Shown in pieces: positions 4,426 to 63,639 of a DNA stretch of 64,000 nucleotides. The stretch lies in NCBI GenBank assembly GCA_036930585.1, contig GCA_036930585.1_3066.1; one strand, written 5' to 3'. The notes under the pieces were generated by a model. That model made no database searches, was not told the DNA's origin, and worked only from the letters and a program-made list of their open reading frames with translations. Within the stretch, counting starts at the first letter, position 1, and each line of letters opens with the position of its first letter. A program made the position numbers and the translations under genes. Source of the DNA: a phage.

Positions 4426-4797
4426 TCACTTAAATTTAATGGCTTGAAGAAGACTAATAACTCTCAAGCGGCTTCTTTCATCTTTAACTGTAAAGGAAAG
4501 AGGGTCACCAGATTTCATAGTGATAGTGCATTCAAAATCAAAATCTTCGGGAACTTCTTCGAATAGATCAAATTCTTCATCATATATTAGAACATTACTC
4601 TGAAAACTGTGAAGAATTTTTCCGTCATTTCCAGATGCTGTACTAATCATTGTAACGTTATTACCTTTCATATCTTCAACGATAAATTCGCTTGTAGATA
4701 TTACATTACTAATAGAACCATTCCTATAAATAGCAGAAAATAGATATTTCTTTTCTTCACCTTCGCGAATGCGATATTTCTTACCGATTTTAAACAT
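4426..4797 (-). CDS. hypothetical protein, 123 aa
   Basis: ATG-initiated ORF in operon context. Confidence 0.55.
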   Translation of the reverse strand: MFKIGKKYRIREGEEKKYLFSAIYRNGSISNVISTSEFIVEDMKGNNVTMISTASGNDGKILHSFQSNVLIYDEEFDLFEEVPEDFDFECTITMKSGDPLSFTVKDERSRLRVISLLQAIKFK

Positions 4798-4799
4798 AA

Positions 4800-4976
4800 T
4801 TACCCTTTAAGTAAGTCGTAAAATCCGCCATTCACATGCTTAGGGGCAGAGACTAACCGAATAGCAATCCGATGACAATCAGGACATACATCAGTATCTC
4901 TTTCAGAAATTTTCTTGATTTTTTCGTATTCTTTTGCGCAGTCTTTTGATTGACATTTATAATCATAAAGCGGCAT
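4800..4976 (-). CDS. small zinc-ribbon protein (FmdB-like CxxC...CPxC), 58 aa; not in ORF track
   Basis: MPLYDYKCQSKDCAKEYEKIKKISERDTDVCPDCHRIAIRLVSAPKHVNGGFYDLLKG; fills the gap between flanking genes with 2-nt spacing. Confidence 0.5.
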   Translation of the reverse strand: MPLYDYKCQSKDCAKEYEKIKKISERDTDVCPDCHRIAIRLVSAPKHVNGGFYDLLKG

Positions 4977-4978
4977 AA

Positions 4979-5392
4979 TTATTCCTTAAAGTGAGCTTTC
5001 AACATCTGATACAAGGACCATGCCTGTTCATCATTTTCAATAGTAACTTTCATTACAGGGAATTTAGATTGATCAGTTATCGGTGCAGATTCTTCCTGCT
5101 CTTCAGCTGCCTGGTATGGATTTTCAACTTCATTAAAGAATTCAGCTTCATTCGATGAAAGCCAAATAAAATCTTCATCCAAAATATCTTTACCAGAAGA
5201 TAGTACTAAATTTCCAGCAAATGACATAATTTTAATAGGACGCCCAAGAGCATCCACATCTAAAATTTTAAAAGGATGCATGCCTAAACGGCGTGCATAG
5301 ATTCCGTTATCAGTATGGTCTTTAATAAAATTTTCTTGAGCTTGTTTATTTTTAAATTGATACCATTTATTAACTTCAAATTTAATAGCCAT
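4979..5392 (-). CDS. hypothetical protein, 137 aa (position of T4 goF/comC-alpha; not verified by sequence)
   Basis: ATG start, TAATG overlap with upstream gene. Confidence 0.55.
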
Positions 5393-5610
5393 TAATAAAT
5401 TTCCTTCCAGTAAGTTGTACCATCTTCAGTGATTTCACGAAATACACCGTAAATTGGTTGTTTATCCCCAACCTTTTCATACACATAAACCGAAGTCAAG
5501 TGAGTAAACTTAGCAGTGTGTTCCTTTTGAACTACTACCAAATCTGGATCGAATAACACATCTTCAAATTCATCATTAGTGCAATTCTGAATAATTTTAC
5601 GTTTCATCAT
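5392..5610 (-). CDS. hypothetical protein, 72 aa (position and size of T4 cef; not verified by sequence)
   Basis: ATG start; gene order. Confidence 0.5.
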
Positions 5611-5707
5611 AATTTCCTCATTAATTGAACATTGGAGCGATGCGTTTCAGAAGAGTAGCAGCACCTTTGGCAAATTTTCCATTTTATTCTCCAAGTTGTT
5701 TTCTGTA

Positions 5708-5779: not shown

Positions 5780-6271
5780 TTATGCATAGCGAGCTTTGCT
5801 GTAGTGTTTAATCCAACTTTCAGGAATGACTTTGTATGTTCCTAAAAATACCGCGTTGTATAACTTAACGCCATCTTCTACCCATTGATCAGTAATGTAT
5901 GCACACATAGCGCGAGTACGCCGAGGAAGTGGTTGTCCACCTTCGATAAATTCAAACTCATAAGGAGCAATGAACTTAATAGCTTGACCGAGTTTCCACT
6001 TAAAGTCTACACCTACATGCGAAGTATCAATCGTTTCAATTCCTTTAGCGGGAACAGCTTTCAAAAACGCAGATTCAAGAAATTTCGCGCGAACATAACC
6101 AAACTGAGGTTTAGACTTTCCATCTTTAGGAATGATACGCACTTTTACTTCAGAATCTTCATCTTTAACGCCGTGTTTAAGCTGAATGCTTACAATTTCG
6201 ACCAATTTTCCTGCTGCTTTAGAACGGGATTTATCAGATACACGAGCAATTTCACCAATATTAATAATCAT
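5780..6271 (-). CDS. motB: MotB-like protein, 163 aa (position/size of T4 motB)
   Basis: ATG start; position after cef-like gene; paralogous C-terminal motif ITDQWVEDGVKLYNAVFLG shared with next gene. Confidence 0.5.
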   Translation of the reverse strand: MIINIGEIARVSDKSRSKAAGKLVEIVSIQLKHGVKDEDSEVKVRIIPKDGKSKPQFGYVRAKFLESAFLKAVPAKGIETIDTSHVGVDFKWKLGQAIKFIAPYEFEFIEGGQPLPRRTRAMCAYITDQWVEDGVKLYNAVFLGTYKVIPESWIKHYSKARYA

Positions 6272-14465: not shown

Positions 14466-14492
14466 AGCGCTCTCCTCTATAAGATAATTCTA

Positions 14493-14521
14493 TTATACCA
14501 TACTCATTTTGGAAAGTAAAC
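14493..14521 (-). promoter_or_regulatory. early promoter (GTTTAC-17-TATAAT)
   Basis: minus strand GTTTACtttccaaaatgagtatggTATAAT. Confidence 0.5.
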
Positions 14522-14531
14522 CATTTAAATG

Positions 14532-42774: not shown

Positions 42775-43260
42775 TCAAGTATTGTAAAACATTTGATTCA
42801 ATCGCTTATATTGCCGAATCTTTTGGTCAGAAAAAGAAATTTGGGTTTCAAGCCATTCAATGTACTCTGCGGCAGCTTGCATCAGGTTACCTTCATAGCC
42901 ATCGTTATTTTCTTGCGCAGCTAATTTAGCTAATGCGTATGAAATACGTTCACCTTGAAAAGCGGCTTTAGGCTTCTGAACATCTTGGCTAGTTCTCTCT
43001 ACAACTTCTTCAATTTCGCCATTTTCTACTGATTCAGTATTCCACAAACACCAGTATGTAATTGGCTTATCATAGATGTTAATAATCTTTCCGTCAGAAA
43101 GTTCAATTTCAATAATTCCAGTGTCAGGCTCTATATCATCTTCACATTCTTTTACAAGTTCACGAACTTTAAAGACAGTACCTGCACTAAGTTCCGGCCA
43201 GTAATTACACAGCCCTGTATCAGCACGATTAATTCTAAACCACTTATCTACTGTAATCAT
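42775..43260 (-). CDS. pin: Pin (inhibitor of host Lon protease), 161 aa
   Basis: ATG at 43260 gives 161 aa as in T4; position next to gene 49. Confidence 0.7.
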   Translation of the reverse strand: MITVDKWFRINRADTGLCNYWPELSAGTVFKVRELVKECEDDIEPDTGIIEIELSDGKIINIYDKPITYWCLWNTESVENGEIEEVVERTSQDVQKPKAAFQGERISYALAKLAAQENNDGYEGNLMQAAAEYIEWLETQISFSDQKIRQYKRLNQMFYNT

Positions 43261-43382
43261 GTCCCATCTCCATATCAATTAAGTCATTTATCGTTGGTTC
43301 ATTATATACTGTTTCTTCATCAGTGTAAACCGGTTCTTCCGGCTCTGGCTCTACAGTTTCCCATCTAGCCGCCCACCAAGGT

Positions 43383-43553
43383 TTAACCCCGAAGCTTATT
43401 AAGTTCTTCATCATCAATCCAGGATTCTAGTCCTGATGGCAGGTCACATTCAATTTCCCAAAGAAGTTCTTCAATTTTTTGAAGACGATCTAGTTCTTCA
43501 GCAGGAATAGTAACCATTGACGGAGCTCTTGCTACATTAATATCGTAAATCAT
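43383..43553 (-). CDS. small hypothetical protein, about 56 aa
   Basis: ATG at 43553. Confidence 0.35.
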   Translation of the reverse strand: MIYDINVARAPSMVTIPAEELDRLQKIEELLWEIECDLPSGLESWIDDEELNKLRG

Positions 43554-43555
43554 AT

Positions 43556-43771
43556 TTACCCCAGTTTGACCATACAATCGCCGTATTTCCACTTAGAAAT
43601 AGACTTTTCACCATTAGAATAATAAACTTCAAGTTTAGCACGATTATTTTTAATTTGAATAACCTTTGCTGTCATCAAAGTTCCATACCCATAATAAACT
43701 GCAACTTCATCACCTACATATACCGCACTTCCGCGGTAATCGTGAATATAGTCAGTTCCTTCGAGCATCAT
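43556..43771 (-). CDS. hypothetical protein, 71 aa
   Basis: ATG ORF overlapping nrdC stop. Confidence 0.5.
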   Translation of the reverse strand: MMLEGTDYIHDYRGSAVYVGDEVAVYYGYGTLMTAKVIQIKNNRAKLEVYYSNGEKSISKWKYGDCMVKLG

Positions 43772-44277: not shown

Positions 44278-44667
44278 TTAATCCAAAATATTATTAGGCA
44301 TTGGTTGAACACTCACAAGTTCTTTAAAGAACTCAGTAGAGTCAGGCAATTTAACCATTTCCGGAGCATGCTTACTGAATTTATGTTTACATTGACGGCA
44401 TTTATATTCAAGCTCTGGTTTACGCCAGTTAATCAATTGAACTTGTTCAGTTCCACATTCAGGGCAATTAGGAACGTTTTTAGAAGCTCTTTCACGTCGT
44501 TCAACCATAGCCATAATAGCATCCCATGCTGGAGGTTTAAAATCTAAATCGTCGCAGCCGTGAATCTTTCCACGCATTTCCATATCATCTTCCTCACCAG
44601 CCATAATAATTTTAATTAAACTGGAATTACTTGAAGCTGCAATGTCTTCTAATAGACGCTTTTTCAT
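44278..44667 (-). CDS. hypothetical zinc-binding protein, 129 aa
   Basis: CPECG...CRQCKH cysteine pairs. Confidence 0.5.
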
Positions 44668-45590
44668 TTCAATACCTCAATAGCATTACGTAAACCATTT
44701 GCTTTGGCGGTTAAAGCCTTAAGAACTTTAGTATGCTCTTCAATTTGTTTTTCAACTTCAGTCAAACGGACATTGAGATATTCACGTTCTTCTTTCATAG
44801 TATCATTTCCATGATTGGGTTTTGGTATAGGTTTAAATTCACTAGGGTCCTTTAATTTAATAACAAATTTAGTTTCAAACAGTGAAAGACCATAATTCGT
44901 ATTATCATCAAAGGATTTGACTACATCCATATCAGATAATAACACGCGCAAATTATAAGCCAAAGAACTAATAGTTTCATTGTGTTTATTAGCTTCGCGT
45001 GGTTTCATATACGGAAGATTTTTATATATCTCATGCGGAGCGCAAACGATAATTGACAATTCAAATTGTCCATTCTGGGACGATGGAATGAATTTAGCCG
45101 TAACCCAGTCTTTTACATTCACATTAATAGTACGGTTATCACCATGACAAAACAGTCTACGAGAATGCTTAAAAAGCATATTCACGTTATTATTGAATTC
45201 GTGTGAAAATTCACTAGCAAATTTTTCTTTACTATCTTTAGAAAACCATTCTTCTAAATAAGTTCTTTTCACGTCGTTAATAATATTAAATGTAACAACA
45301 CTAGCATTTGATACATTAGTCTTAATGTAGCTTGGATACATAAATTTTTTAACATTATTAACAGCTATCACAGAAGATAGTAATCGGGAACGTTTGAACC
45401 ACTCGAGCAAAGAACCAAGAGAATGTGAATACGCATTTTGTGTATCTTTACAAATATGGTTTTCCCATCCAATATAGTCTAAAAAATCACGAAGAATATT
45501 ATTGATTACTGCTCTGTGTCCGATCTGATAATTACGGTGTTTAGTAATAAGACTGTCAAAATAATCAATATAATGTTTACGAGTTTTCAT
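44664..45590 (-). CDS. hypothetical protein, 308 aa, member of tandem paralog family with C-terminal coiled coil
   Basis: MKTRKHYIDYF... N-terminus and C-terminal coiled coil shared with the next three genes. Confidence 0.6.
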   Translation of the reverse strand: MKTRKHYIDYFDSLITKHRNYQIGHRAVINNILRDFLDYIGWENHICKDTQNAYSHSLGSLLEWFKRSRLLSSVIAVNNVKKFMYPSYIKTNVSNASVVTFNIINDVKRTYLEEWFSKDSKEKFASEFSHEFNNNVNMLFKHSRRLFCHGDNRTINVNVKDWVTAKFIPSSQNGQFELSIIVCAPHEIYKNLPYMKPREANKHNETISSLAYNLRVLLSDMDVVKSFDDNTNYGLSLFETKFVIKLKDPSEFKPIPKPNHGNDTMKEEREYLNVRLTEVEKQIEEHTKVLKALTAKANGLRNAIEVLK

Positions 45591-45642
45591 ATTCTTCTCA
45601 CTTGGTTAATGGTTTATACTCCGAGCCATCCTTGGCTTTAAA

Positions 45643-46644
45643 TTACTTAATTAACTGTAAAGCTTGTTCAAGACGATTAAGACGATTAACGGATTCTTCC
45701 CAAATCTTTTTAGCCTGCTCATATTCTTTCTGCGCTTTATTAGAAATTTCTAGAACTTCTTTATAAGCTTTTTCTAGTGCAATAACTTCTGGACGAATTT
45801 CTACTGGTTCAGGCGAATCGTCAAGACATTCCATTAGTTCCTCAAGGGTAGTTTCTTCTTTAGGAGTATTCACAATTTCATCACATTTTTGTTGGTAAAT
45901 TTCTTTATCAGTCGGTGAGTACGCACACTTTACTTCACGGAGACTAACTACAATTTTATATCCTTCCCAACCGCATATATTCTTAAAAGGATAAGTATGA
46001 ATATTTTCTACTGTTTCCATACAAAGTAATGCGGTCTCTAATTGACGAGTTATAGTGCTAGCAATTGAGAAAAATTTATTAATGTTCTTTTGATTAGCTT
46101 CTGGTGTAAAAAATCTGTAATTAATAAAAATAGCTACTTTGTTTTTATCAAGTTCATATTCTTCTGCTATAATCATATCATCAGCTAAGGGATGAATTTG
46201 ACGATAATCGCCATAACATAATTTAGAAGCTGATTTTAGAATTTGCTTCGTAAAACTCCTAAATTCACTAACCCAACGACGAGTAAAAATATTCTCAGGG
46301 TCTTCTTTAGTATTAAGATGATAAGTATTAACATCACCGAACCAATTATATCCTACTACATCTTTAGTTCGTTTAATTTCTTTCCCAAATTTACTAAGAA
46401 TATCTCTGTTGACTAAGTATGAAAGAAGACGAGACTCTTTAAAGGTTTTCTTGATAAGATCTTTATCTACACGACTAGAAATTTTACGAATTTCATGAAT
46501 AAATTTGCTGGAAGAAACAATACTTGCATCAGTATTGTTGAGCCACTGATTGATAATAGAAAGAACACTATTCTGACTAGACATAGGTTTAACTTTATCA
46601 TCAATAACGCTATTGAATGATTTGATATATTCGTTACGAGTCAT
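45643..46644 (-). CDS. hypothetical protein, 333 aa, tandem paralog family member
   Basis: ATG at 46644 with GAGGAG SD (MTRNEYIKSF...); track start at 46674 lies within the promoter. Confidence 0.6.
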   Translation of the reverse strand: MTRNEYIKSFNSVIDDKVKPMSSQNSVLSIINQWLNNTDASIVSSSKFIHEIRKISSRVDKDLIKKTFKESRLLSYLVNRDILSKFGKEIKRTKDVVGYNWFGDVNTYHLNTKEDPENIFTRRWVSEFRSFTKQILKSASKLCYGDYRQIHPLADDMIIAEEYELDKNKVAIFINYRFFTPEANQKNINKFFSIASTITRQLETALLCMETVENIHTYPFKNICGWEGYKIVVSLREVKCAYSPTDKEIYQQKCDEIVNTPKEETTLEELMECLDDSPEPVEIRPEVIALEKAYKEVLEISNKAQKEYEQAKKIWEESVNRLNRLEQALQLIK

Positions 46645-46672
46645 ATTAATCTCCTCAGTAGAAAGTAAGAAC

Positions 46673-46704
46673 ATTATACCACATCCTTGTGGTAAAGTAA
46701 ACTA
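46673..46704 (-). promoter_or_regulatory. early promoter; exact 32-nt repeat of the promoter at 1202-1233
   Basis: attataccacatccttgtggtaaagtaaacta identical at both sites. Confidence 0.5.
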
Positions 46705-47730
46705 GTTCAGTGCATTTAATGCATTGTTCAGTTTAGAACGTTGCTTCGTGAGATTTTTGACTTTTTCTTGTGCTTTTTCTAGCATCTTTTCAGCTTCTAG
46801 CATTTCATTGGTCGCTTTAACGAGTTCATCATCTACTGCCTTAAGAGACTTTTCAATCGCATCAGCGTGCCATTTTTCTACAGGTTTAAAATTTGAATTT
46901 TCAGTAGGAAGAAAACTCACTTTATTAAGTTTACATGCATCTATGTTACTTGAACTGTACATCCAACATTTAGGATCGTTTGATAAGTAATTGGATAAAT
47001 TTAAATTTAAGGTATCTTGCACTTCCTGCTTTTTCTCTTGCGGGACTTCATCCTTTCTCAAAAAATCGTATTTAAATGAAACGATCATATCAAGTTCATA
47101 CGTTGTTGTATGTTCCCAATTTCGCTCAAAATGAGGTAAAATCTTAGACTGAACAGCGGCAACAACATCCATATACTTAAATGCTTCTGTCAACTGTGAT
47201 TTAAGGCATTCACAAATTGAAAGAGAATTTTTTGTATTAGGTTTAAAGCTAATTCGTGCAGTTCTATTATTTTCTTTTAACGGTCTTACTTCCATCTGAA
47301 GAGTATAACCATCAAATTTCAGGTTCTTTAAGTTAATGTCAGAACCTTTTAATCGACTAGCCGTCGACAAAATTTGCTTTAATTGTCTACGGAACAGAGC
47401 AATAAATCTCCATTCAATGCGATAATGATTTGGATTGAAAAATCCAGATGATAAATCGACCTTACTCTGACCAACACCTTGAACAAATAGAGGATTTTTA
47501 TAATCAATAGTTTTACAGAAATCGGTGAGCTGTTCACGAGCAGTCATTTGAGTAATATACCCAGCTTCATTAAAATTACGCACCCATTCACTGCTGTTCA
47601 GATGTTTAAAGGCGTGAATGGAACAATTAACTTTACCAAGGTCTAAATTATTTTCGCACAAAAATGTCATAGCATCACGAGTATAGCTGGCATTACGAAC
47701 CATATCTTCAATTTGAGAACGAGTTTTCAT
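46702..47730 (-). CDS. hypothetical protein, 342 aa, tandem paralog family member
   Basis: MKTRSQIEDMV...; C-terminal coiled coil. Confidence 0.6.
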   Translation of the reverse strand: MKTRSQIEDMVRNASYTRDAMTFLCENNLDLGKVNCSIHAFKHLNSSEWVRNFNEAGYITQMTAREQLTDFCKTIDYKNPLFVQGVGQSKVDLSSGFFNPNHYRIEWRFIALFRRQLKQILSTASRLKGSDINLKNLKFDGYTLQMEVRPLKENNRTARISFKPNTKNSLSICECLKSQLTEAFKYMDVVAAVQSKILPHFERNWEHTTTYELDMIVSFKYDFLRKDEVPQEKKQEVQDTLNLNLSNYLSNDPKCWMYSSSNIDACKLNKVSFLPTENSNFKPVEKWHADAIEKSLKAVDDELVKATNEMLEAEKMLEKAQEKVKNLTKQRSKLNNALNALN

Positions 47731-47738
47731 GGTGTTCC

Positions 47739-48626
47739 TTAAGATTTAAGTAAATCGATAATTTTAATTAACTTTTCACGCTCAGATTTAGCTTTACTAC
47801 TCAGTCCAGATAGTCTGAAAATTTCATCATCATATTGTTGAATAGAAATATTCAGTTCTTCAATCTGTTTATTAAAATAATCAATTTGTTCAGAATGTTT
47901 TTCGTTACTACGAACTGGTACAGGTTTCGTAGGCAATGTAGTTGAACTGGATTCATCCGGGCGATAAATTAAAATACAATTTGAACCAATCGGGCATTTA
48001 GCACCAGACACATATTCTAGTGTTCCAGCTTCTTTTAAAACTTCAAAAGCTAAACAGAGATGATGACCCATATTGACATAATCTGTAGAGTGAGCTCTGA
48101 TATAATAATCATCTCCACGAGTACTAAATTTAAAGCATTTAAGGTCTTCTGTATTATTAGTTTTAAAAATCATTTGTTTATCTAGACCTTTAGCTAATCG
48201 AGCGCCTAATGCTAATAATCGTCGTTGATTTTCCCACAAATCTGCGATCATTTGGTCAAATGATAATTTCGGCATTAGTCGACCATAAAGGTCATATCCT
48301 TTATTATAATTGCGAAGGATTTCACACGCATTAATACGAGACAACGCTCCAATTTTATTAAGTGCTTTCATAATGCGATTAGATAAAAGCATTCCAGACC
48401 CGTTTGTTCGTTGTAAATGTTTATCTAATCCAAACCCAATATCAACTTTAAACTTATCTAAAATTTCAGCATGAACATCTCTGTCAATAACATTCAAATC
48501 CAAAGTTGGGTTAAATCTATGAAAAAATTTATCTGGTTCTCCACGGCGAAGTACAGTCCATTCATTTGATTTTTTATTAACTAAAGATTTAATTACTGCA
48601 TTGACATTATTAATTACTACTGACAT
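47739..48626 (-). CDS. hypothetical protein, 295 aa, tandem paralog family member
   Basis: ATG at 48626; C-terminal coiled coil ...SEREKLIKIIDLLKS. Confidence 0.55.
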   Translation of the reverse strand: MSVVINNVNAVIKSLVNKKSNEWTVLRRGEPDKFFHRFNPTLDLNVIDRDVHAEILDKFKVDIGFGLDKHLQRTNGSGMLLSNRIMKALNKIGALSRINACEILRNYNKGYDLYGRLMPKLSFDQMIADLWENQRRLLALGARLAKGLDKQMIFKTNNTEDLKCFKFSTRGDDYYIRAHSTDYVNMGHHLCLAFEVLKEAGTLEYVSGAKCPIGSNCILIYRPDESSSTTLPTKPVPVRSNEKHSEQIDYFNKQIEELNISIQQYDDEIFRLSGLSSKAKSEREKLIKIIDLLKS

Positions 48627-49653: not shown

Positions 49654-49683
49654 ATAGTACCACAGAGGAACAGTCTTGTAAAC
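49654..49683 (-). promoter_or_regulatory. early promoter (GTTTAC-18-TACTAT)
   Basis: minus strand GTTTACaagactgttcctctgtggTACTAT. Confidence 0.45.
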
Positions 49684-50090: not shown

Positions 50091-51059
50091 TTATTTCAGA
50101 AGAGTAACCTCAGCGATTTCTTGCCAACCGTTTTTGTCGGTCATAATAAAGTCAGCAAGATAAAGTGCAGTACGCAGTGAAACATTGCGTAAACGATTAA
50201 CATTGACTTTCATCCATGATAATGCTTTATAAGTTTCTTCATCAGAAAGACCGCGCTTTTGCATCATGTCAGTTGAAAGAATAACATCTTCAACCCTGAC
50301 CATAATTTCTTCATTAGTGTGAACACCCAAATCCAAATAAACCGAGCGGGACACTAATGCTTGTAAATGTGGAGCAAGTTTAGTACCACGGTCTAATTCG
50401 CGGTCAATGTCAACGTTTGTGATAAAAACAATCGTTCCTTTAAATTCAAACTCACGCTCAATGCCTTTTTCTTCTAAGTAAGAAGATGCGGTGCTCCAGC
50501 AGACTTTACGGGTCTCTCCAGTGTCCAGAGCAGCTTTCAGAAGATTAAGAATGTCCATATCAGAGAAAACATCCACATCATCAATCAAAAGGACAGAATT
50601 CTCTTCACGATTATTCCAAAGTTGTTCATAAAGACCGATACCGGAGATTTTACCGTTAATGCTTTTATATTCAATGTATCCATTATCATTTGCTTTATTC
50701 AAAGCTTTATCTAAAGAATACGTTTTACCAATACCCGCCGCACCAGAGATAATTAATGAACGAATGTTTCCGTTAATAATACCATTCGTCATCATTCCCA
50801 TAACATTAAATCTTTTATTAATGCGGGTTTTCATATCTTCATATGATTCTTTAACTTCTTCAACTTTTACACCATCATATGAAATGTCTGATTTGTAAAC
50901 CCAAACACCGCGACGCTTACCGTCAATTTCAACAAAAACTTTACCATCTCCTTGTGCATCTACCGGAGCATTATCTGGGAACCATTCACCTAAGAACTCA
51001 AAAGTTCCAGAGATTTCTTTACCGAAGTAGATACCCTTATTGATAGTTACAGTTTTCAT
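50091..51059 (-). CDS. AAA+ ATPase, 322 aa
   Basis: Walker A GAAGIGKT, Walker B LLIDDVD; ATG at 51059 with GGAG SD. Confidence 0.6.
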   Translation of the reverse strand: MKTVTINKGIYFGKEISGTFEFLGEWFPDNAPVDAQGDGKVFVEIDGKRRGVWVYKSDISYDGVKVEEVKESYEDMKTRINKRFNVMGMMTNGIINGNIRSLIISGAAGIGKTYSLDKALNKANDNGYIEYKSINGKISGIGLYEQLWNNREENSVLLIDDVDVFSDMDILNLLKAALDTGETRKVCWSTASSYLEEKGIEREFEFKGTIVFITNVDIDRELDRGTKLAPHLQALVSRSVYLDLGVHTNEEIMVRVEDVILSTDMMQKRGLSDEETYKALSWMKVNVNRLRNVSLRTALYLADFIMTDKNGWQEIAEVTLLK

Positions 51060-51128
51060 TTTATTCTCCAATCTCACATTTGTTTTGATAGGGTAATAGT
51101 ATCACACTACTACCCTTCTGTAAACAAT

Positions 51129-59797: not shown

Positions 59798-59827
59798 ATT
59801 ATACCACAGTCAAGAGGAAAAGTAAAC
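59798..59827 (-). promoter_or_regulatory. early promoter (GTTTAC-18-TATAAT) upstream of regB
   Basis: minus strand GTTTACttttcctcttgactgtggTATAAT. Confidence 0.5.
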
Positions 59828-59829
59828 AG

Positions 59830-62670: not shown

Positions 62671-63639
<969 letters not shown>

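Follow-up and report, generated by a model that had tools for sequence, protein, structure and literature searches.

Diverged nrdC.3 to nrdC.6 paralogs with coiled-coil tails in a T4-like phage: a candidate counter-defense family that includes the ortholog of the anti-Dsr1 protein NrdC.5

Dsr1 is a widespread sirtuin defense, the mechanism and viral inhibition of which are poorly understood. It consists of a SIR2 effector and an Avs7-type sensor that recognizes the phage major capsid protein (PMC13581612), and was previously identified as the cause of the failure of a T4 deletion clone on ECOR17 (Srikant et al. 2022, eLife, PMC9391042). With T4 nrdC.5 alone expressed in trans, plating on dsr1-bearing MG1655 was regained (PMC9391042); the extent of the deletion and the paralogs remaining in the complemented phage are not stated in the text and supplements searched, which also make no mention of the three neighbors of nrdC.5 or of any mechanism. 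Our literature search found no later paper on the mechanism of NrdC.5 and none on the function of nrdC.3, nrdC.4, or nrdC.6. In T4, nrdC.1-6 were among the fragments that were removable in a genome-reduction study (PMC9825161), and in T6, the gene immediately past nrdC specifies gp49.2, an inhibitor of OLD (PMC13096335). In the present study, we analyzed the array formed by nrdC.3, nrdC.4, nrdC.5, and nrdC.6 in a 64,000-nucleotide (nt) stretch of phage DNA (GenBank assembly GCA_036930585.1, contig GCA_036930585.1_3066.1; hereafter the window), in which an earlier note, made by a model from the sequence without database searches, had described four consecutive paralogous genes of approximately 300 amino acids (aa). 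Their positions and sizes had been given exactly, and are as follows:

44664..45590, minus strand: nrdC.3, 308 aa, Phage_T4_Y04OP / phrog_1435 type (phrog_1435 at 1.4e-98), 92% identical to T4 NrdC.3
45643..46644, minus strand: nrdC.4, 333 aa, Phage_T4_Y04OP / phrog_1435 type (phrog_1435 at 7e-165), 92% identical to T4 NrdC.4
46702..47730, minus strand: nrdC.5, 342 aa, DUF7235 (PF23882 at 3e-117), 89% identical to T4 NrdC.5
47739..48626, minus strand: nrdC.6, 295 aa, Phage_T4_Y05B / phrog_2257 (at about 1e-150), 97% identical to its T4 counterpart

We favor, with moderate confidence, the reading that these genes are diverged paralogs encoding coiled-coil protein inhibitors of host defenses, with Dsr1 as the likely target of NrdC.5, and that they have been retargeted by duplication and head swapping. 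Regarding nrdC.5, PF23882 matched over its full length with 391.9 bits against a cut-off of 30, and the gene is syntenic with T4 nrdC.5, lying between nrdC.6 and nrdC.4; by identity and synteny, it is the ortholog of the gene for the T4 anti-Dsr1 protein. When PF23882 was compared with the other three proteins, it reached 14.5 bits with nrdC.3, in the tail only, and did not match nrdC.4 or nrdC.6. Homologs of nrdC.4 carry PF26897, nrdC.3 and nrdC.4 were placed in PF26897/phrog_1435, and PF26899 was found in 105 of the 105 nrdC.6 homologs. The earlier note had proposed host-range or counter-defense functions for the whole array, which stands for one member, T4 nrdC.5 against Dsr1; for nrdC.3, nrdC.4, and nrdC.6, we infer a counter-defense role, and regard them as candidates because of their paralogy and genomic context. 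Its statement that no domain was assignable holds in substance, since every Pfam or PHROG family that was matched is one of unknown function. Searches of Pfam and NCBIfam revealed no enzyme domains in the array proteins, and no match was obtained to solved structures or defense families. The N-terminal pattern attributed to the array is present in nrdC.3 (MKTRKHYIDYF), nrdC.4 (MTRNEYIKSF), and nrdC.5 (MKTRSQIEDMV), but not in nrdC.6 (MSVVINNVNAV), and the motif M(K)TR-x2-(Y/I)I also occurs in distant relatives (MTRSHYIEYF, MSRNEYIKAF, MNIKTRKEYS, and MITREEFIASM).

Similarity beyond composition links all four proteins, but was detected by profile methods only, BLASTP being insufficient. An all-against-all BLASTP comparison detected nrdC.3/nrdC.4 alone (26% over 168 aa, expectation value (E) 5.5e-6); the alignment of nrdC.4 with nrdC.5 was collinear over 265 residues with E = 1, and identity among the paralogs was 14-26%. 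Compared with shuffles, the head regions gave z = 11 for nrdC.3/nrdC.4 and z = 5 for nrdC.4/nrdC.5, with the other pairs being unremarkable. Profile-profile comparisons with shallower alignments yielded 54% for nrdC.4/nrdC.5 (E 1.3e-4), 21% for nrdC.4/nrdC.6, and 0.6% for nrdC.5/nrdC.6, with collinear alignments in mutually consistent registers. Deeper profiles, extended by Mosigvirus and Dhakavirus members and then merged, resolved the placement of nrdC.5 and nrdC.6. The family profiles compared by hhalign combined database homologs with the arrays from T4, G157lw, a Mosigvirus, a Dhakavirus, and others, and the results obtained were as follows:

nrdC.3/nrdC.4: 98%, E about 1e-14, 211 columns
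nrdC.4/nrdC.5: 94%, E 1.4e-7, 248 columns
nrdC.4/nrdC.5 with the tail removed: 94%, E 9e-8, 182 columns
nrdC.3/nrdC.5: 67%, E 5e-5, 120 columns
nrdC.6 against each family singly: 1-22%, E 1e-3 to 4e-2, 65-97 columns
merged nrdC.3+4+5 against nrdC.6: 88%, E 3.3e-6, 274 columns
merged profile plus three distant single-copy genes against nrdC.6: 94%, E 1.3e-7, 148 columns

The merged-profile match to nrdC.6 spans the N-terminal and central parts (150-270 columns), not the tail. Controls were clean, with 12 reversed-profile comparisons giving at most 0.5% and merged-profile controls at most 0.3%. Two motifs recur among the paralogs, FK-x-S/G-x-L(S/T)-x5-A-x3-L-x2-(F/Y) and a long helix ending in (A/S)-x-(K/R)-L-x2-3-G-D. 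These profile comparisons identify nrdC.3 to nrdC.6 as deeply diverged paralogs of one ancestral gene, nrdC.6 being the most diverged, and we propose uniting PF26897, PF23882, and PF26899 in a single superfamily of common predicted architecture.

Several other proteins were considered as members and rejected. The 175-aa neighbor nrdC.8, which has a similar helical tail, reached at most 0.8% by hhalign, and neighbors in distant phages (Roth34, 272 aa; CF1, 262 aa; HK6, 315 aa) reached at most 1.5%, as did the nrdC.10- and nrdC.11-like proteins of Navy71. Sequence comparison gave no support to a 371-aa protein of Muldoon, yet its PS2 relative is matched by Foldseek (see below).

The C-terminal heptad segments described in the earlier note proved to be real in all four proteins, each with a single continuous register and 80-88% hydrophobic residues at the a/d positions. 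The tails are located as follows:

44667..44804, minus strand: nrdC.3 coiled-coil tail, aa 263-308; a/d hydrophobic 11/13; shuffles reaching the score, 0/2000
45646..45789, minus strand: nrdC.4 coiled-coil tail, aa 286-333; a/d hydrophobic 12/14; shuffles reaching the score, 3/2000
46708..46884, minus strand: nrdC.5 coiled-coil tail, aa 283-341; a/d hydrophobic 15/17; shuffles reaching the score, 0/2000
47745..47903, minus strand: nrdC.6 coiled-coil tail, aa 242-294; a/d hydrophobic 12/15; shuffles reaching the score, 0/2000

The nrdC.4 tail was aligned with the nrdC.5 tail by hhalign, and local alignments of the nrdC.3 tail with the other three gave z values of 3.4-4.8. Structures were compared for the AlphaFold models of nrdC.5 and nrdC.6, by the order of their elements and by Foldseek targets. 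In these models, the nrdC.5 tail is a single 59-residue helix (283-341), and that of nrdC.6 consists of two helices (242-271 and 276-294); the latter model has a predicted local distance difference test score (pLDDT) of 77.8 and a predicted template modeling score (pTM) of 0.65. Both models give one layout, the nrdC.5 model at low confidence, with the order N-terminal helices, long helix, β-hairpin, helix, β-hairpin, disordered linker, and C-terminal helix. From these two models, the architecture predicted for the family runs from a helical N-terminal region through a long helix, a ββ-α-ββ core, and a disordered linker to the heptad-repeat helix at the C terminus. In a viral structure library, Foldseek matched both models to uncharacterized proteins, approximately 220-375 aa long, of other T4-like phages. 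Five targets were common to nrdC.5 and nrdC.6, from IME523 (1.3e-5 and 1.9e-7, respectively), Mineola, PM2, Merlin, and PS2.

Regarding nrdC.6, the T4 reference gene (AF158101; 2967-3794 of the fetched locus) encodes 275 aa and matches the window protein only to residue 258, after which it ends in an unrelated tail (…FLFNNMMMKFSDYLD), a frameshift having removed the coiled coil. This frameshift may have arisen by mutation in the laboratory strain or may reflect an error in the sequence. Another nrdC.6 homolog, the 378-aa database protein P0001 of Shigella phage Sf25, contains an internal tandem duplication of approximately 83 residues (IRAHSTDYVNMGHHL…QIEEL, twice).

A search of 1.84 billion cluster representatives with a profile hidden Markov model of nrdC.5 gave 13 matches and no bacterial family; with only 13 matches, the nrdC.5 family is narrow. 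The family as a whole is confined to T4-like phages, occurring as a single copy beside nrdC in distant genera and as three to four copies in Tequatrovirus, Mosigvirus, and Dhakavirus. In T4-like phages of Klebsiella, Citrobacter, and Acinetobacter, the single gene encodes 324-335 aa with a coiled-coil tail, and comparisons of these distant genes with the nrdC.4 or nrdC.5 profiles gave 17-57%. Array membership varies across T-even phages, with natural subsets and fusions:

T4 and this window: four members
Mosigvirus O157tp3: three members, nrdC.3-, nrdC.5-, and nrdC.6-like
Dhakavirus VR5: three members, nrdC.4-, nrdC.5-, and nrdC.6-like
ACG-C40: nrdC.6 and a 71-aa nrdC.5 stump (5802-6017 of the fetched locus)
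CJY920: three members, with an in-register nrdC.4/nrdC.3 recombinant (MFLLSTEEINMTR joined to KHYIDYF) at 4661-5617 of the fetched locus
Database protein P0225: an out-of-register nrdC.5::nrdC.3 fusion of 299 aa, without nrdC.4, on three contigs, the longest being 167 kilobases (kb)

The deletion in ACG-C40 leaves the last ~70 codons of nrdC.3. In CJY920, the leader and first codons of nrdC.4 are joined to the body of nrdC.3; nrdC.4 is thereby deleted and nrdC.3 placed behind the nrdC.4 promoter. Three allele classes of nrdC.3 were found, with identities of >90%, about 60%, and about 55%. Against phage G157lw, the DNA encoding the nrdC.3 head is a divergent cassette (43-79% identical) between conserved ends, identity being 89-97% over the first ~100 nt of the gene and over the ~200 nt for its tail; in this nucleotide comparison, nrdC.3 is a swapped head on a conserved stalk. 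The database protein P0231 consists of the nrdC.5 tail on a different head, on a contig of 803 nt that is uninformative as to context. P0198, on a 489-kb contig labeled E. coli (GCA_025336695.1, JAODFN010000001.1), was rejected as a bacterial homolog because it belongs to a T4-like nrdC array, complete and located at 16-29 kb of this contig. The contig probably stems from a mixed or chimeric assembly, and not from integration of a phage.

In the mechanism that we propose, the array proteins would be made early in infection and would act as non-enzymatic, stoichiometric inhibitors, the coiled coil forming oligomers and the variable head binding a host immune protein. By analogy with DSAD1 and DSR2, the likely target of NrdC.5 would be Dsr1 itself, probably its sensor region, which NrdC.5 may occupy or lock before the late capsid protein trigger appears, and duplication and head swapping may retarget the paralogs to different defense systems or alleles. 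A more far-reaching version, which we advance only tentatively, is a modular inhibitor platform in which an oligomerizing coiled-coil stalk carries an exchangeable head recognizing a host immune sensor; each paralog or nrdC.3 head allele would disarm a different defense protein, such as Dsr1- or Avs7-type sensor variants, and recombination, among the paralogs as well as from phage to phage, would reshuffle heads to track host immunity.

A number of points weigh against the reading of the array as a set of retargeted defense inhibitors. A function has been demonstrated for one of the four genes only, and for the T4 allele rather than that of the window, while direct binding of NrdC.5 to Dsr1, although probable by analogy, is a step that we ourselves infer. 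The link of nrdC.6 to the family depends on the merged profile, the pairwise family comparisons reaching only the 1-22% given above. The nrdC.5 AlphaFold model is of low confidence (mean pLDDT 59.6), and Foldseek template modeling (TM) scores were low at 0.2-0.5, as is to be expected for flexible, multi-part proteins. Since the T4 reference nrdC.6 lacks the coiled coil, this tail can be dispensed with, on laboratory hosts at least. Within Tequatrovirus, moreover, nrdC.5 is 87-100% and nrdC.6 93-99% conserved, which is not a fast-arms-race pattern for every member.

The conservation of nrdC.6 across Tequatrovirus also fits a different division of labor, in which nrdC.5 is the anti-Dsr1 gene and nrdC.3, nrdC.4, and nrdC.6, in spite of common ancestry and architecture, are unrelated to immunity and serve, for example, early host takeover or the modulation of host or phage proteins. 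We found no reported phenotype for these three genes in the literature searched, and with a paralog identity of only 14-26%, functions could have drifted. However, the array genes are dispensable on laboratory hosts, their copy number is variable with repeated natural losses, the nrdC.3 head cassette is swapped, and two validated anti-defense genes are found in the same neighborhood; such features are typical of host-specific accessory genes or counter-defense genes, and we consider a mixture of functions to be rather unlikely.

Two further explanations concern the tails. The four proteins may be joined through their similar coiled coils into a single hetero-oligomeric complex with one target such as Dsr1, in keeping with the similarity of the nrdC.3 tail to the others, its weak match to the DUF7235 C terminus, and the adjacency of the genes, which are probably co-transcribed early. 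This is improbable considering that nrdC.5 alone in trans restored plating on Dsr1 cells (the paralogs left in that phage being unstated in the paper), that T4 nrdC.6 has lost its tail, and that natural subsets occur, namely, ACG-C40 with nrdC.6 only, CJY920 without nrdC.4, VR5 without nrdC.3, and distant genera with a single copy. Alternatively, unrelated heads may have acquired a mobile coiled-coil module, with the similarity arising from composition and convergent architecture. The detection of only nrdC.3/nrdC.4 by BLASTP, the occurrence of such tails in a few database proteins whose heads are unrelated (P0231 and P0236), and the separation into three families in Pfam and PHROGs are compatible with this, but it is largely refuted by the head-only profile match of nrdC.4 with nrdC.5 (94%, E 9e-8). 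The nrdC.6 match covering N-terminal columns rather than the tail, the agreement of alignment registers between independent pairs, the low values for reversed profiles (≤0.5%) and for the helical-tailed nrdC.8 (≤0.8%), and the secondary-structure order common to the nrdC.5 and nrdC.6 models also argue against it, and we regard it as very improbable. Inhibition of host defenses by diverged, retargeted paralogs is the reading that we consider most likely.

With respect to transcription, nrdC.4 is provided with a promoter-like site of its own, which is recognizable from its sequence as being of the T4 early type. The earlier note had reported an exact copy of a promoter found at gene 60 in front of one array gene; this gene is nrdC.4, and the other copy adjoins gene 60 rather than preceding it:

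46673..46704, minus strand: early-type promoter before nrdC.4 (GTTTAC, 17 nt, TGGTATAAT), a 32-nt exact repeat that overlaps the nrdC.5 stop codon
1202..1233, minus strand: second identical 32-nt promoter copy, just past the gene 60 stop codon and upstream of an rIIA.1-like open reading frame (ORF)

We take GTTTAC, a 17-nt spacer, and TGGTATAAT to be the T4 early promoter form. The two copies agree at 32/32 nt, where 0 matches would be expected by chance. At 1202-1233, annotation places the topoisomerase small subunit, an 8.1 kDa protein, and rIIA under the match. Identical but 45 kb apart, the copies could serve as substrates in the deletions and amplifications by recombination that have been described for T4. 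In the window, the early-promoter-like repeat family comprises 1202-1233, 14492-14523, 46673-46704, 59798-59829, and 62746-62777. The nrdC.4 ATG at 46644 is preceded, at a distance of 7 nt, by a GAGGAG ribosome-binding site, and an alternative ATG at 46674 falls within the -10 box of the promoter. Upstream, nrdC.6 slightly overlaps nrdC.7 and nrdC.5 starts 8 nt after nrdC.6; this close spacing makes it probable that nrdC.7, nrdC.6, and nrdC.5 share a transcript starting at an upstream site near 49654-49682, which was recognized as early promoter-like by consensus matches.

The window belongs to a Tequatrovirus, with 96.8% identity to phage MLP2, 93% to T4, and matches in 596 phage records; its G+C content is ~35%, and all of its genes are on the minus strand, the plus-strand ORFs around the array being short. 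The array is flanked by endonuclease VII, Pin, the NrdC thioredoxin, nrdC.1, and nrdC.2 on one side and by nrdC.7 to nrdC.10 on the other, and no Rfam families were found in its region. Its placement in an accessory region holds; the array is dispensable in T4 and differs in copy number among phages, and in T6 the anti-defense gene gp49.2 maps nearby. In the window itself, no tblastn match to T4 gp49.2 or gp49.3 was obtained, matches being only to 49.1, pin, nrdC.1, and nrdC.2, and at 43244-43771 the place of gp49.2/gp49.3 is taken by different small ORFs of 57, 69, and 71 aa. The adjacent nrdC.2 (44278-44667) encodes 129 aa versus ~104 aa in T4 and has a zinc-ribbon match under the Pfam cut-off (Zn_ribbon_8, E 6.6e-6); its 3' part and the downstream spacer are 15-80% identical to T4 and nearly identical to phage G157lw. 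On the other side, nrdC.10 (50091-51077, 328 aa) showed weak matches to P-loop/STAND-like NTPases (nSTAND3, 1.2e-4; AAA_16, 2e-4), all under the Pfam cut-offs. The nrdD gene (minus strand, ~42150) is broken near codon 38 (window CTTATGGCCTGGTATTG versus T4 CTTATGGCTGGTATTG), where one additional C divides the reading frame into two ORFs, the first of 42 aa; the break points to a pseudogene or, alternatively, to a sequencing error.

Annotation of these genes goes back decades, and the function of one of them has been in the literature since 2022; uniting PF26897, PF23882, and PF26899 represents a modest, incremental step. NrdC.5 is the only dedicated Dsr1-specific factor that we found reported, the NAD+-rebuilding NARP1-3 pathways also counteracting Dsr1, and a four-member family nominates three more T4 genes as counter-defense candidates. 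The conserved, putative oligomerization tail appears to be separable from the variable head, which probably carries target specificity, and this may guide the design of chimeras and binding studies. The family is, moreover, traced to a single-copy gene beside nrdC in the T4-like phages of Klebsiella, Citrobacter, and Acinetobacter.

Among known systems, T4 NrdC.5 is the closest, with 46702-47730 of the window being its ortholog by 89% identity, the same array position, and a full-length PF23882 match; the difference is that rescue from Dsr1 belongs to the T4 allele, and that nrdC.5 was treated in PMC9391042 as a lone uncharacterized early gene. In the databases, the pairing of nrdC.3 with nrdC.4 was already on record in PF26897/phrog_1435, and PF26899/phrog_2257 holds nrdC.6; however, these resources (PF26897 and PF26899; PHROGs 1435, 2351, and 2257) keep three separate families of unknown function, which are here joined into one superfamily with DUF7235. 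The nearest functional analog is DSAD1, described in two reports (PMC10973363, PMC11087589) as a phage protein that neutralizes the SIR2-domain NADase defense DSR2. Sequence or fold similarity to DSAD1 was not encountered in the array proteins, and Pfam and NCBIfam showed none of the NAD+ reconstitution enzyme domains of NARP1/2/3 in them. Other counter-defense genes of T-even phages, such as dmd, tifA, and adfA of the anti-toxin-antitoxin island, ipI, ipIII, and the anti-OLD gp49.2, resemble the array in being non-essential, accessory, and clustered, several of them early, and in being directed against one host defense each and readily lost or amplified by recombination. Nevertheless, their sequences are unrelated and their clusters have not been described as tandem paralog arrays, unlike nrdC.3 to nrdC.6, which descend from a single ancestor as judged from the profile comparisons.

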